DNA from: Escherichia phage Turkey5
DNA: 64,000 nt
Strand: one strand, 5' to 3'
Sequence record: PQ471516.1
Part shown: piece after piece, positions 38,671-41,503 of the stretch
Layout: every line of letters starts with the position of its first letter
How positions within the stretch are numbered: the stretch's first letter is position 1
The notes under the pieces: model-generated
Database searches by the model: none
What the model saw: the letters and a program-made list of their open reading frames with translations, nothing else
What the model was told of the DNA's origin: nothing
Position numbers and translations under genes: made by a program

Positions 38671-40002
38671 ATGTCTACTCAAAACGCTGATATCCTGAAC
38701 GTAAAACTGACTCCTAAGAAAGCTAAAGCAGCAATGGCACTGGCTGACATGATTCAAGACAGCCTGATGATTTGGGGTAGCCCTGGTATCGGTAAATCTG
38801 CAATTGCCCGTCAATACGCTGATGAGAACTACCCACTGCGTAAAGACAATCTGGCTAAGATTGAGTTCATGAAGCAGCAAATTGAAGTTGATGTAGAAAA
38901 TGCTGACCAACTACGCCGTGAACTGGCAGCGTTCGAAGCTAAACTGATTGACCAAGACACCAACTTCATCGACTTCCGTTTGTCACAGATTGAACCAAGT
39001 GACCTACGTGGTATCCCAGTACCAGAGAAGATTTTCCTTGATATGGATGGTAAGCAACTGATTGAATCTGAACTGGAAACTGCACAAAACTACATCGCTG
39101 AAACAGCAGTAGTGTGGGCTGCACCAAAAGTGCTGAAACTAAGCCCTGAATGGAAAGGCGTTATCCTGTTCGACGAAATTAACTCTGCAATGCCTATCGT
39201 GCAAGCAGCTTCTTATCAGCTAATCCTCGACCGCTGTGTTGGTGAGATGAAGCTACCTAAGAAAGCTCTGATTCTGGCAGCAGGTAACCGTGAAACTGAT
39301 GGCGGTGTAACCTTCTCTCTAGCTACACCACTGCGTGACCGTATGACTCACATCGAGATGGTTCCTTATCATCAAGATTGGATTAACGACTACGCAATTG
39401 CGAAACGTCTGAACCCAGCAACTGTTGCGTTCATCAACAACACTGGTGCTAAGTACTTCAACACCCTTAGCCCACAAGATCCTTCTCACAGTGGTGGTAC
39501 TTCCCCACGTTCATGGGAAGCAGTAGCACGCTACGAAGACCTGAAGAAAGGTGGTCAGAGTATCGATAAAGAAGTGTTTCGTGCTCTAGTTGCAGGTCGT
39601 GTTGGTGAAGGTGTTGCTACCGAGTACATCGAATATGTAGAAAACGTATCTAAACTACCAGATACCATGTCTATCCTAAACGGTGAGATTAAAGAGATTG
39701 ACGCTTCGCTAGATATTTCTGCGAACTACTTCATCTCTCTGAACCTGGTCTATAAAATTATCGACCTGTACAATGAGAAGCAAGAACAACGTCTGGATGT
39801 GGCTGAATGGGGTAAACTGTGCAACAACTTCATCATCTTCCTAGACCATAACTTCTCTGCAACTCAAGCAGAACTGGCAGTACTAGCGATTCGTACCATC
39901 ACTCAGGCACGTGTAGCGATTTCGACTAAAGATGTACCAGCGTTCACTGACTTCATCAAGAAGTACACTGACCTAGTACGTAAAGCACGCTCCCTAAGCT
40001 AA
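38671..40002 (+). CDS. MoxR/CobS-like AAA+ ATPase
   Basis: Walker A GSPGIGKS, Walker B ILFDEIN; codon usage visibly CTG/CGT-rich compared with neighbouring genes. Confidence 0.75.
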   Translation: MSTQNADILNVKLTPKKAKAAMALADMIQDSLMIWGSPGIGKSAIARQYADENYPLRKDNLAKIEFMKQQIEVDVENADQLRRELAAFEAKLIDQDTNFIDFRLSQIEPSDLRGIPVPEKIFLDMDGKQLIESELETAQNYIAETAVVWAAPKVLKLSPEWKGVILFDEINSAMPIVQAASYQLILDRCVGEMKLPKKALILAAGNRETDGGVTFSLATPLRDRMTHIEMVPYHQDWINDYAIAKRLNPATVAFINNTGAKYFNTLSPQDPSHSGGTSPRSWEAVARYEDLKKGGQSIDKEVFRALVAGRVGEGVATEYIEYVENVSKLPDTMSILNGEIKEIDASLDISANYFISLNLVYKIIDLYNEKQEQRLDVAEWGKLCNNFIIFLDHNFSATQAELAVLAIRTITQARVAISTKDVPAFTDFIKKYTDLVRKARSLS

Positions 40003-40027
40003 TAATTCGAAATAGTGGTTGACAAGG

Positions 40028-40058
40028 AGGATACCAAATGGTATCCTTCTTTTATCTT
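40028..40058 (+). terminator. rho-independent terminator
   Basis: AGGATACC-AAAT-GGTATCCT followed by a T-rich run. Confidence 0.55.
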
Positions 40059-40078
40059 AACTAAACGAGGAATTTAAA

Positions 40079-41503
40079 ATGTCTCAAGAACAAAAATTCA
40101 AATTCGAAGAAGTTTCAGCTTCAGTACAGAAAGAGTGCCAAGACCGTCTTATTCTCGCACGTACATCTTTGATGCTTACTAAACCATTCTTTGGTGTACT
40201 GGCATCCCGTCTTCGTCCAGTACCTAACAACACATGGTGTCGTACTCTGGCAGTAGATGGTAAGCACCTTTTTTATAACGTAGAATTCGTAATGGGTATT
40301 CAAGACCCACTCAAGAAAGACGCATATGAAGCAGCAATGCGTGAAGCTCATCCAGAAATTACTGACGAGCAGTTGAAAGAAATGACCGAAGGCTTGACTG
40401 ACGAAAACCTGATTGCAGTTATTTGTCATGAAATTCTTCACTGTGCATACGACCACTTCTTGCGTCGTGGTATGCGTGACCCACAACGTTACAACCGTGC
40501 TGCTGACTACGCGATTAACCAGATTTTGGTTCGTGAAAAGATTGGTAAAATCCAGAATGGTTGGTTGTATGATCCAAAATATGACGGTATGACCGCAGAA
40601 GAGATCTACAACATTCTTCTAGAAGAAGATGAAAAACAAGAACAACAAGAAGGTGAAGGCGAAGGCCAACCACAACAAGGTGGTAGTGGTCAGGGTGAAG
40701 GGCGTTCACGTGGTACATTTGGTGACCTTGCTGATGGCAAAGGTAAAGGTACTCCAAAAGGTACTACCATTGACCAACATGACGTTCCACAAGATGGTGA
40801 TGGCGGTCAGTCTGATGAGAAGAAACGTGAATATATGGACGATTTCAAAACCGCAATGATGAACGCGGCTCGTGCAGGTGGCACACCAGCAGAAATCGAA
40901 CGTATGATCAATAACTTCAAAGCACCAAAAATTGACTGGCGTGCAAAACTACAACGTACTTTGCGTAGCTGGTTAAAATCTGATGCTACTTATCAGAATC
41001 CAAACCGTCGTTCATGGGGTGCAGGTTTTGGTTCTAACGGTTCATTCTACGGGAACCCAATTTTCCCAGGTATGAAACCAGATGATGATATTGATATCGC
41101 AATTGCACTAGATGCATCCGGTTCTATCTCTGAAGATATGCTCCGTGACTTCATCAGTGAAGTACTGGGTATCACTAAGCAATTCAAACAGTTTAAGATT
41201 CGTATCATGACATTTGATACTCAAGTTTATACTGTAATGGATTATAAAACTGGTGAAGAACGTAAGATTCTTGAATATCCAGTTAAAGGCGGTGGCGGTA
41301 CTGACTTTGAAGCAGTGTGGGTTCACATGAAACACGACAACTACAAGCCTAAACAACTTGTAATGTTTACAGATGGTGAGCCGTGGCAGTCATGGGGTGA
41401 TCCTAACTACTGTAAGACACTGTTCGTTATTCACAGTAATCCAGAGAAAGTCGCACCATTCGGTGAAACCGTACACTACGAGTACGAAAATAAGAAAAAA
41501 TAA
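40079..41503 (+). CDS. von Willebrand factor A protein with N-terminal HExxH metallopeptidase-like domain
   Basis: HEILH motif; Gly/Gln/Glu-rich linker; MIDAS motif DASGS. Confidence 0.7.
   Translation: MSQEQKFKFEEVSASVQKECQDRLILARTSLMLTKPFFGVLASRLRPVPNNTWCRTLAVDGKHLFYNVEFVMGIQDPLKKDAYEAAMREAHPEITDEQLKEMTEGLTDENLIAVICHEILHCAYDHFLRRGMRDPQRYNRAADYAINQILVREKIGKIQNGWLYDPKYDGMTAEEIYNILLEEDEKQEQQEGEGEGQPQQGGSGQGEGRSRGTFGDLADGKGKGTPKGTTIDQHDVPQDGDGGQSDEKKREYMDDFKTAMMNAARAGGTPAEIERMINNFKAPKIDWRAKLQRTLRSWLKSDATYQNPNRRSWGAGFGSNGSFYGNPIFPGMKPDDDIDIAIALDASGSISEDMLRDFISEVLGITKQFKQFKIRIMTFDTQVYTVMDYKTGEERKILEYPVKGGGGTDFEAVWVHMKHDNYKPKQLVMFTDGEPWQSWGDPNYCKTLFVIHSNPEKVAPFGETVHYEYENKKK

Follow-up and report, generated by a model that had tools for sequence, protein, structure and literature searches.

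Iyer, Anantharaman, Krishnan, Burroughs and Aravind (Viruses, 2021; PMC7824862) described, in the 'group 2.2' jumbo phages, a two-gene module in which a MoxR AAA+ ATPase accompanies a von Willebrand factor A (vWA) co-chaperone that carries a metallopeptidase at its N-terminus. The core of N4-like phages numbers 14 genes, including gp24 and gp25 of phage N4, both transcribed as middle-class genes. Among characterised MoxR ATPases, which include NorQ and CbbQ2, the NorQ/NorD pair serves nitric oxide reductase maturation and CbbQ/CbbO is a Rubisco activase. Here we describe an ATPase–partner pair of this kind from Escherichia phage Turkey5 (sequence record PQ471516.1), encoded within a stretch of 64,000 nucleotides, the whole of which we call the window. 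The distinct codon usage of the two genes carries the statistically supported signature of selection for very high translation, from which we infer the expression level.

The genome that carries the pair is that of an Asteriusvirus jumbo coliphage. Identity over this region is 99.4% with Escherichia phage vB_EcoM_JNE01 and 84–86% with phages 121Q, PBECO4 and phAPEC6. The partner gene starts 76 nt downstream of the ATPase gene (Table 1). The ATPase is orthologous to phAPEC6 gp265c and homologous to N4 gp24, the partner is orthologous to phAPEC6 gp264c ('N4 gp25-like'), and the phAPEC6 record labels the two 'MoxR ATPase' and 'N4 gp25-like protein'. Searches with tblastn found relatives in 820 phage records, including N4 gp24. 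The pair comprises a MoxR-class AAA+ ATPase and a dedicated vWA adaptor, which bears a metal-ion-dependent adhesion site (MIDAS) and a zincin-like HExxH domain; both belong to the phage family of which N4 gp24/gp25 are the type, and in Rak2/121Q-like jumbo phages both genes are part of the vertically inherited core. An earlier note on this DNA had proposed such a module from the letters alone: its ORF (open reading frame) coordinates were exact and every motif that it quoted was found (GSPGIGKS, ILFDEIN, HEILH, DASGS and the Gly/Gln/Glu-rich linker).

The module is already known from the work of Iyer et al. (2021), and the pair is not new; as far as our searches show, its expression architecture is unreported in the literature that we found. 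Taken as a whole, we think it probable that this is a known MoxR–vWA pair with expression-selected codons and an upgraded promoter, which would act in early to mid infection as an ATP-driven machine that remodels and cleaves its targets.

Codon usage of the ATPase and its partner

Across a background of the 23 window genes of at least 200 amino acids, GC content at third codon positions (GC3) was 0.239 ± 0.045, compared with 0.42 for the ATPase (z +4.1) and 0.33 for the partner (z +2.1). CTG made up 56% of leucine codons in the ATPase, 18% in the partner and 6% in the background, and the 1-kb bin with the highest GC content in the window (0.455) covers the ATPase. The E. coli codon adaptation index (CAI) was computed with weights from 30 E. 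coli genes, those for ribosomal proteins and elongation factors and rpoA. The window averaged 0.392, the ATPase reached 0.563 and the partner 0.551; compared with synonymous resampling from the phage background, the values of the two genes correspond to z-scores of +10.6 and +6.7.

The window was joined to the rest of the JNE01 record to give a genome set of 231 ORFs of at least 150 amino acids. Here the ATPase ranked first for deviation in the effective number of codons (ENC; 36.4 vs 59 expected at its GC3) and third for each of GC3, CTG share and CAI. The partner ranked sixth for both ENC deviation and CAI, 47th for GC3 and 34th for CTG share, combining a modest shift in GC3 with a bias in CAI and ENC that is nonetheless strong. 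Ranked at the top with them were a TelA-like gene and the genes of abundant virion proteins, the single-strand DNA-binding protein and the major head protein; codon optimisation of the ATPase is on a par with that of the last two.

What distinguishes the ATPase is a rise in CTG, TTC, AAC, TAC, GAC and ATC and the complete avoidance of AGA, AGG, CGA, ATA, GGA and TTA, while four-fold codon families stay T- or A-ending, so that the increase in GC is not uniform. Such a profile matches the optimal codons of E. coli and departs from that of its average genes. The per-gene codon-adaptation and GC3 statistics that the earlier note had called for set both genes significantly apart from the rest of the phage. 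Its description of them as different from their surroundings, the ATPase most of all, with CTG and GC raised, therefore stands; its inclusion of CGT and GGT does not, as these are the preferred arginine and glycine codons genome-wide (60% and 73% in the background).

The phage tRNA genes, at OR670491.1 246282–253812, comprise Leu-UAA, Gly-UCC, Ser-UGA, Ser-ACU, two with the anticodon CAU and two Thr-UGU, a set that fits the A-ending codons common in most phage genes and avoided in those with the strongest codon bias. Among 234 genes, the ATPase makes the third least use of codons read by these tRNAs (Leu-UAA, Gly-UCC, Ser-UGA, Thr-UGU and Met/Ile-CAU). We considered such avoidance as a sign of early translation and discarded it: the major head protein, tail sheath and other late proteins avoid the same codons, so the pattern speaks of general optimisation and is uninformative on timing. 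Elsewhere in the window, an 84-aa ORF at 23236–23490 has the highest CAI of all (0.625), with CTG at 50% of leucine codons, although it is too short for firm statistics; a promoter-like site matching 11 of 12 consensus positions lies upstream of it.

The excess in codon bias and GC could also mark genes acquired horizontally not long ago, from the host or a donor richer in GC, whose composition has yet to ameliorate. The GC maximum over the ATPase and a GC3 four standard deviations above local genes would suit such an origin, as would the absence of the shift from the orthologues in Serratia phage BF and Pectobacterium phage CBB and a divergence between the E. coli/Klebsiella clade and BF/CBB that is somewhat greater for the ATPase than for neighbouring conserved genes. 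However, the pair holds an identical position in four genera, represented by Asteriusvirus, Alcyoneusvirus K64-1, Eneladusvirus BF and Mimasvirus CBB, all of which share the order sheath, tube, structural genes, ATPase, partner, small ORFs, DprA/SLOG-like gene and thymidylate synthase. The identity of the ATPase to its orthologues (90% in 121Q, 81% in K64-1, 60% in BF and 56% in CBB) is in line with that of other conserved neighbours, and its nearest relatives are jumbo-phage long forms, all with both of the insertions described below.

Synonymous divergence (dS) is equally hard to reconcile with a recent arrival. The dS of the ATPase against 121Q (0.57) is the lowest in the neighbourhood and that against K64-1 (0.96) is undercut only by one low-complexity acidic gene, which argues for constraint on synonymous sites. 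A compositional signal that is not under selection should decay over a dS of about 1, yet the codon shift is common to Asteriusvirus and K64-1 at that distance, and at both the JNE01 and K64-1 loci the ATPase comes first locally on all four codon measures. The rise in CTG and NNC codons with T- or A-ending four-fold families is an optimal-codon pattern, and matching DNA was absent from 5,426 E. coli genomes. We consequently rejected recent acquisition, on synteny, dS, codon pattern and the want of a match in E. coli genomes, and regard it as very improbable. The earlier note had offered 'expression optimisation or recent acquisition': optimal codons, CAI z-scores and genome ranks favour the first, while synteny, dS, the sharing of the shift with K64-1 and the E. 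coli genome search tell against the second. A codon-usage island in a phage genome is not automatic evidence of horizontal transfer.

Selection for expression is also the reading that accords with more distant loci. In 63 IMG/VR loci with a homologue, the median z-score of ATPase GC3 relative to neighbouring genes was +2.95, exceeding 2 in 65% and falling below zero in two, compared with a median of −0.09 for other ORFs of at least 300 amino acids in the same loci. After de-replication at 60% single linkage, which collapses the 80 IMG/VR loci into 8 or 9 clusters, the ATPase z-score was positive in 8/8 clusters and top-ranked in seven (Mann–Whitney p = 8e-6), and its ENC deviation was more extreme than that of its neighbours in all eight. 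The same bias thus appears in unrelated phages and, where the background is itself GC-rich, the ATPase is richer still, which excludes regression to a common pool and tells against acquisition. A homologue of the partner, present at 61 of the 80 loci and usually 40–500 nt downstream of the ATPase, follows the trend more weakly. Codon bias of the ATPase is therefore recurrent, not universal.

Upstream signals, hairpins and genomic context

The 313-nt region upstream of the ATPase holds three candidate host promoters, P1, P2 and P3, the first two of them perfect sigma-70 consensus matches (Table 1). Five such perfect matches occur in the 64 kb, where 0.14 would be expected; the composite genome has 44, concentrated in the block of small genes at 224–345 kb. 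P1 is kept in 121Q with TACAAT, and P2 is conserved in 121Q and K64-1, so that K64-1 has one perfect consensus promoter and Asteriusvirus two. At the aligned P2 site, Serratia BF and Pectobacterium CBB carry TGAAAC(G/A)...TGgTATAAT, a sequence of the 'middle' class. The −10 element of P3 reads TATAAT in 121Q and TATCAT in K64-1 and is absent in BF and CBB.

Three promoter classes have been described in CBB: RpoD-like with an UP element (early), a divergent type with a −35 of TGAAACG (DNA-synthesis genes) and ATAAATA (late) (PMC5259590). Within the window, strong sigma-70 sites precede only non-structural genes and no middle-class promoter of the form TGAAAC-N-TATAAT was found, while structural genes carry a (C)TAAATA(A/T) motif; the region upstream of the ATPase has no ATAAATA-type late motif, which supports an earlier timing. 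A promoter-like site in front of the gene after the partner shows what would be an early/middle island continuing toward thymidylate synthase. Promoter class switches in the same lineages as codon usage, Asteriusvirus and K64-1 on one side and BF and CBB on the other, and this co-change is the pattern expected if expression had been turned up in the E. coli/Klebsiella clade. Perfect host sigma-70 promoters would then have replaced a weaker middle-class promoter in that lineage, if their activity is as their sequences suggest.

Downstream of P1 and P2 lies a leader hairpin that recurs at the same place in K64-1, BF and CBB with both sides of the stem changed (GGAACUG:CAGUUCC, GGCACUG:CAGUGCC, GGACUG:CAGUCC). 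RNAalifold returned no pairs from a MAFFT alignment of these leaders, in which loops of unequal length had misaligned the 5′ arms, and the hairpins were folded sequence by sequence instead. The element is predicted to be a promoter-proximal terminator or attenuator, or else the 3′ end of a short RNA from P1/P2; transcripts from P1 and P2 that ended there may amount to a short RNA of ~100–200 nt or a regulated attenuator. BF and CBB have a single promoter ~25 nt from the leader hairpin. An Rfam scan of 38300–41650 found nothing credible. A second hairpin with a U-run, resembling an intrinsic terminator, separates the two genes and is found at the same position in 121Q, K64-1, BF and CBB, with a stem of unrelated sequence in BF and CBB. 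Given this terminator and the weaker codon bias of the partner, more ATPase than partner is expected; if active, the arrangement would set an ATPase excess that fits a complex of one hexamer to one adaptor.

Two observations concern similar promoters elsewhere in the genome. In the early region of small genes at OR670491.1 309708–328780, outside the window, the spacers of about a dozen perfect sigma-70 promoters end in CAGTACTGTATAAT, which sets a palindrome, CAGTACTG, against the −10 element and looks like the operator of a regulator. At about OR670491.1 120600, 4.4 kb past the end of the window, a perfect promoter with a P1/P2-like ATGTGATATAAT −10 precedes a 761-aa gene (120668–122953) that corresponds by position to the 'ATP-dependent protease' of K64-1 and CBB; with it, the structural region contains a second enzyme of protein remodelling that is preceded by an early-type promoter.

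These signals bear on an alternative put forward by Iyer et al. (2021), who likened the pair to p618/p892 of Acidianus two-tailed virus, cited as a precedent for a role in virion development (PMC7824862). On that account the complex would be a virion-assembly chaperone joined to a processing protease, folding or assembling tail or head parts while the peptidase trims structural proteins, and codon optimisation would reflect the very many structural subunits in each jumbo virion. Gene position is in keeping with it: the pair sits between tail-tube/structural and tail-fibre genes in the four genera, and in N4-like roseophages a 'second structural module' adjoins the gp24/gp25 homologues. The ATPase has as strong a codon bias as the major head protein, and the accessible part of the phAPEC6 virion mass spectrometry lists peptides of the ATPase and none of the partner. 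The same phAPEC6 virion preparation, however, also yielded thymidylate synthase, so that detection of the ATPase may only reflect its abundance.

Transcriptional class and distant gene neighbourhoods likewise count against assembly. The signals upstream of the pair are early (sigma-70 consensus) or middle (TGAAACG), not the ATAAATA late class of structural genes, and N4 gp24/gp25 are middle transcripts within a nucleotide-metabolism/replication block. Thymidylate synthase recurs near the module in three phage groups that are unrelated to one another, as ThyA in jumbo phages and in N4 (there with dCTP deaminase and gp30) and as ThyX in environmental contigs of 129–161 kb; in the window it lies at 43114–44043, within a few kb downstream, and a ThyA homologue is found in 15/80 IMG/VR loci. 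Bacterial homologues (~30% identity) are abundant in Acidobacteriota chromosomes, often in several copies per genome, as a cassette of ATPase, conserved 314-aa protein (no Pfam match) and DUF2201 protein. Their flanks encode Siphovirus Gp157, RNase H, PRTRC-E, ThiF and a helicase-like protein, with motifs read by eye, and there was no virion gene among the conserved neighbours; these copies lie in replication and establishment modules of mobile elements. Promoter classes and gene contexts together point to action from early or middle infection rather than to purely late morphogenesis, and we rate the assembly role as rather unlikely.

Among the adjoining genes, a 198-aa gene at 42521–43117 abuts thymidylate synthase, is called 'DprA-like' in relatives and gives a weak Pfam SLOG match (YAcAr, E 9e-4, below the cut-off). 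Upstream of the pair, 35057–37598 encodes a 503-aa protein with a Lys/Glu/Pro-rich tail and an adjacent 335-aa protein that is extremely Asp/Glu-rich, both annotated as virion structural proteins in relatives; they are of low complexity, fast-diverging (32–42% identity to BF/CBB) and without a Pfam match.

Domains and folds of the two proteins

The ATPase matched phrog_1297 ('ATPase') at 7e-105. In Pfam it scored 22.4 bits with the generic AAA model (cut-off 21.2) and 18.9 bits with AAA_3 (cut-off 27), and gave no hit to AAA_5; its short-form homologues (30–33% identity, ~370 aa) match both AAA_5 and AAA_3. Searched against solved structures, the family profile matched midasin AAA_5 modules alone (E 1e-6). 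The AlphaFold (AF2) model of the ATPase has a mean predicted local distance difference test (pLDDT) score of 88.9, and a Foldseek search of the PDB with it returned NorQ chains as 15 of the top 19 hits (E 1e-7, target-normalised TM score ≤0.64), with CbbQ2 at rank 16. Across 68 sequences, G36, G39, K42, S43, D168, E169, N206, R224 and R280 are invariant; by their positions, N206, R224 and R280 would be the sensor 1 asparagine, arginine finger and sensor 2 arginine.

The unusually long insertion between Walker A and Walker B to which the earlier note drew attention is real and comes in two parts, with K42 and D168 separated by 126 residues, compared with 64 in short relatives. The helices of insertion 1 (residues 58–73 and 75–91) are modelled with high pLDDT, and for insertion 2 the same model shows strands at 115–124 and 141–150.

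The partner matches, from N- to C-terminus, the Pfam families DUF2201_N ('putative metallopeptidase'; 124 bits, 1e-35, cut-off 23.2) and DUF2201 (vWA-like; 74 bits, 1e-20, cut-off 26.4). No substitution of H117, E118, H121 or H126 occurs among 62 homologues, the most distant at ~41% identity; the complete MIDAS motif is likewise invariant among homologues, and the vWA fold also resembles the MIDAS domains of NorD, BchD and midasin in fold searches. The linker has pLDDT <50 over residues 197–223 and 238–241. A profile of the N-domain by itself gave weak matches at the HExxH helix, to MJ1213 (E 0.1) and CAAX prenyl protease 1 homolog (E 1.3). These Pfam, fold and vWA matches, with NorQ/CbbQ as best structural hits of the ATPase, uphold the two-gene module of the earlier note. 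The spacing from DGK to HExxH is 59 residues in partners of long-form ATPases and 27 at all measurable short-form loci; the N-domain insertion and the ATPase insertions co-occur in the long-form clade and, in what amounts to a single inference from one clade, may form a lineage-specific interface.

The label 'HNH endonuclease', carried by phrog_1314 and many GenBank/RefSeq records, did not hold for the partner, for which Pfam gives only DUF2201_N, DUF2201, VWA and VWA_2; it appears to be a widespread propagated misannotation, possibly arising from the HExxH/His-rich motif. Neither protein matches PADLOC defence-system models. The earlier note's analogy with CobS/CobT did not extend to membership, as neither protein matches CobS/CobT Pfam models or NCBIfam and the 12 kb on either side of the pair contain no annotated cobalamin gene.

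Structural kinship with NorQ also raises the question of metal. Like NorQD, CoxDE, CobST and BchID, the pair might be a chaperone that inserts a metal cofactor into, or activates, a metalloenzyme of nucleotide metabolism, such as ribonucleotide reductase. Its closest structural relatives, NorQ/NorD, do insert metal, in N4, jumbo and environmental phages a gene for thymidylate synthase or dCTP deaminase is close to the module, and the genome encodes both class Ia and anaerobic ribonucleotide reductases. Yet the invariant HExxH peptidase-like domain is foreign to known metal-insertion partners, expression at the level of capsid protein is hard to square with a catalytic maturation factor, proximity to nucleotide genes may only mean a shared temporal class, and CobS/CobT models gave no match. 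We consider this explanation quite improbable.

Table 1: Features of the ATPase–partner locus, in window coordinates
Feature	Coordinates	Strand	Details
P1, sigma-70 consensus match TTGACA-16-TATAAT	38382..38409	+	12/12; extended −10 TG; A-rich UP-like tract upstream
P2, second sigma-70 consensus match	38474..38501	+	12/12; tandem near-repeat of P1; TG; A-tract
Leader hairpin AAAGGAACUG...CAGUUCCUUU and U-rich run	38565..38614	+	−15.4 kcal/mol; z −5.0
P3, promoter-like TTTACT-16-TGgTATAAT	38605..38632	+	10/12 and extended −10; downstream of leader hairpin
MoxR-class AAA+ ATPase gene	38671..40002	+	443 aa; 49.6 kDa
Walker A, GSPGIGKS	38776..38799	+	aa 36–43
Insertion 1	38824..38958	+	aa ~52–96, about 45 residues; predicted helical hairpin after Walker A helix; in alignment, long jumbo-phage form only
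Insertion 2	39025..39102	+	aa ~119–144, about 20 residues; lengthens beta-hairpin after conserved DLRGIPVP segment
Walker B, ILFDEIN	39163..39183	+	aa 165–171
Intrinsic-terminator-like hairpin and T-run	40024..40058	+	12 bp; between ATPase and partner; −18.2 kcal/mol; z −4.8
Partner gene	40079..41503	+	474 aa; 54 kDa; zincin-like N-domain, disordered linker, vWA domain
N-domain insertion, lineage-specific	40295..40408	+	aa ~73–110; upstream of HExxH helix
HEILHCAYDH, HExxHxxxxH motif	40427..40456	+	putative zinc/catalytic site; HEILH aa 117–121, 40427–40441
Gly/Gln/Glu/Asp-rich disordered linker	40625..40813	+	aa 183–245; 17 G, 10 Q, 7 E in 63 residues
vWA domain with complete MIDAS	41090..41476	+	D345-x-S347-x-S349, T408, D432; DASGS aa 345–349, 41111–41125
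Promoter-like TGGACA-16-TGaTATAAT	41552..41579	+	11/12; in front of gene after partner

Proposed role and comparison with known systems

By analogy with NorQ/NorD and CbbQ/CbbO, the vWA domain would dock on the ATPase hexamer, the MIDAS site would capture an acidic residue of a target protein, ATP hydrolysis would pull the flexible linker or the target, and the HExxH domain would cleave the target. The weakest step of this scheme is its setting, most likely action from early to mid infection on abundant targets other than capsid, for example host or replication-stage complexes. A bolder form of the proposal, which we hold only tentatively and consider unlikely, is that the module is an abundant, early, ATP-driven capture-and-cleave machine used by phages and mobile elements at establishment, not a virion-assembly chaperone, and that it remodels or destroys abundant host proteins such as defence, nucleoid or replication-associated complexes. 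If that were true, codon optimisation, the promoter switch and the ratio of ATPase to adaptor would together reflect a stoichiometric fight with host targets.

Several points weigh against a highly expressed, early-acting remodel-and-cleave machine. The codon shift is absent from BF, CBB, N4, an rV5-like coliphage and a Yersinia-phage-like locus, so high expression is not universal in the family, and the MoxR homologue of the rV5-like coliphage also lacks an adjacent DUF2201 partner, which limits generalisation; the IMG/VR clusters, moreover, represent a modest number of independent observations. Promoter and terminator assignments are consensus matches only, and the leader hairpin, being downstream of P1 and P2, could terminate their transcripts, in which case the ATPase may not be driven by P1 and P2. 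The pair is embedded in a block of structural genes and the ATPase occurs in virion preparations, both in keeping with a role in morphogenesis; the capsid-like expression level of the ATPase also leaves the assembly hypothesis standing. Against solved structures, a zincin fold for the N-domain was not confirmed, as fold searches were swamped by the vWA domain, and the literature on family function (PA5oct omics, CRISPRi-ART, phage TnSeq and N4-like comparisons) yielded no experiment on any member.

The module is nevertheless part of the N4-like core, is kept across Rak2-like jumbo phages, has matches in the 820 phage records and turns up again in mobile elements of bacteria. Tuning to capsid level and the joint change of promoter and codons make a 'hypothetical chaperone' into a clear experimental target, and the expression architecture provides a useful lead on a widespread, uncharacterised phage module.

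Set beside the systems already described, the pair is closest to that of Iyer et al. (2021), whose purely computational study dealt with this very module in this phage group and proposed a virion-assembly role; codon bias, promoter class, attenuator/terminator hairpins and lineage-specific insertions do not appear in that work. N4 gp24/gp25 belong to the same two families (N4 gp24 at ~30% identity by tblastn), with the ATPase first and the vWA protein after it, and like the jumbo-phage pair they lie near thymidylate synthase and dCTP deaminase; database records label the partner 'gp25-like' or 'N4 gp25-like'. The jumbo-phage ATPase is, however, ~90 aa longer than its N4 counterpart, with two insertions, the jumbo-phage partner has an extra insertion in its N-domain and, unlike the Asteriusvirus pair, the N4 genes show no shift in codon usage.

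Acidianus two-tailed virus p618 (MoxR) and p892 (vWA), compared here by description, form a viral MoxR–vWA pair from an archaeal virus, without the peptidase domain. The HExxH domain of the phage partner is likewise no part of the CobS/CobT and BchI/BchD chelatases. NorQ/NorD and CbbQ/CbbO provide the best structural matches of the phage ATPase, although sequence identity is just 11–15%, and in NorQ/NorD one vWA partner engages one hexamer via the pore and the linker is remodelled. The phage ATPase differs from NorQ and CbbQ by its two additional insertions and by a helical domain of ~140 aa at its C-terminus and, unlike NorQ/NorD and CbbQ/CbbO, the phage pair has no evident metalloenzyme client; its partner carries an HExxH domain where NorD and CbbO have a substrate-specific N-domain.

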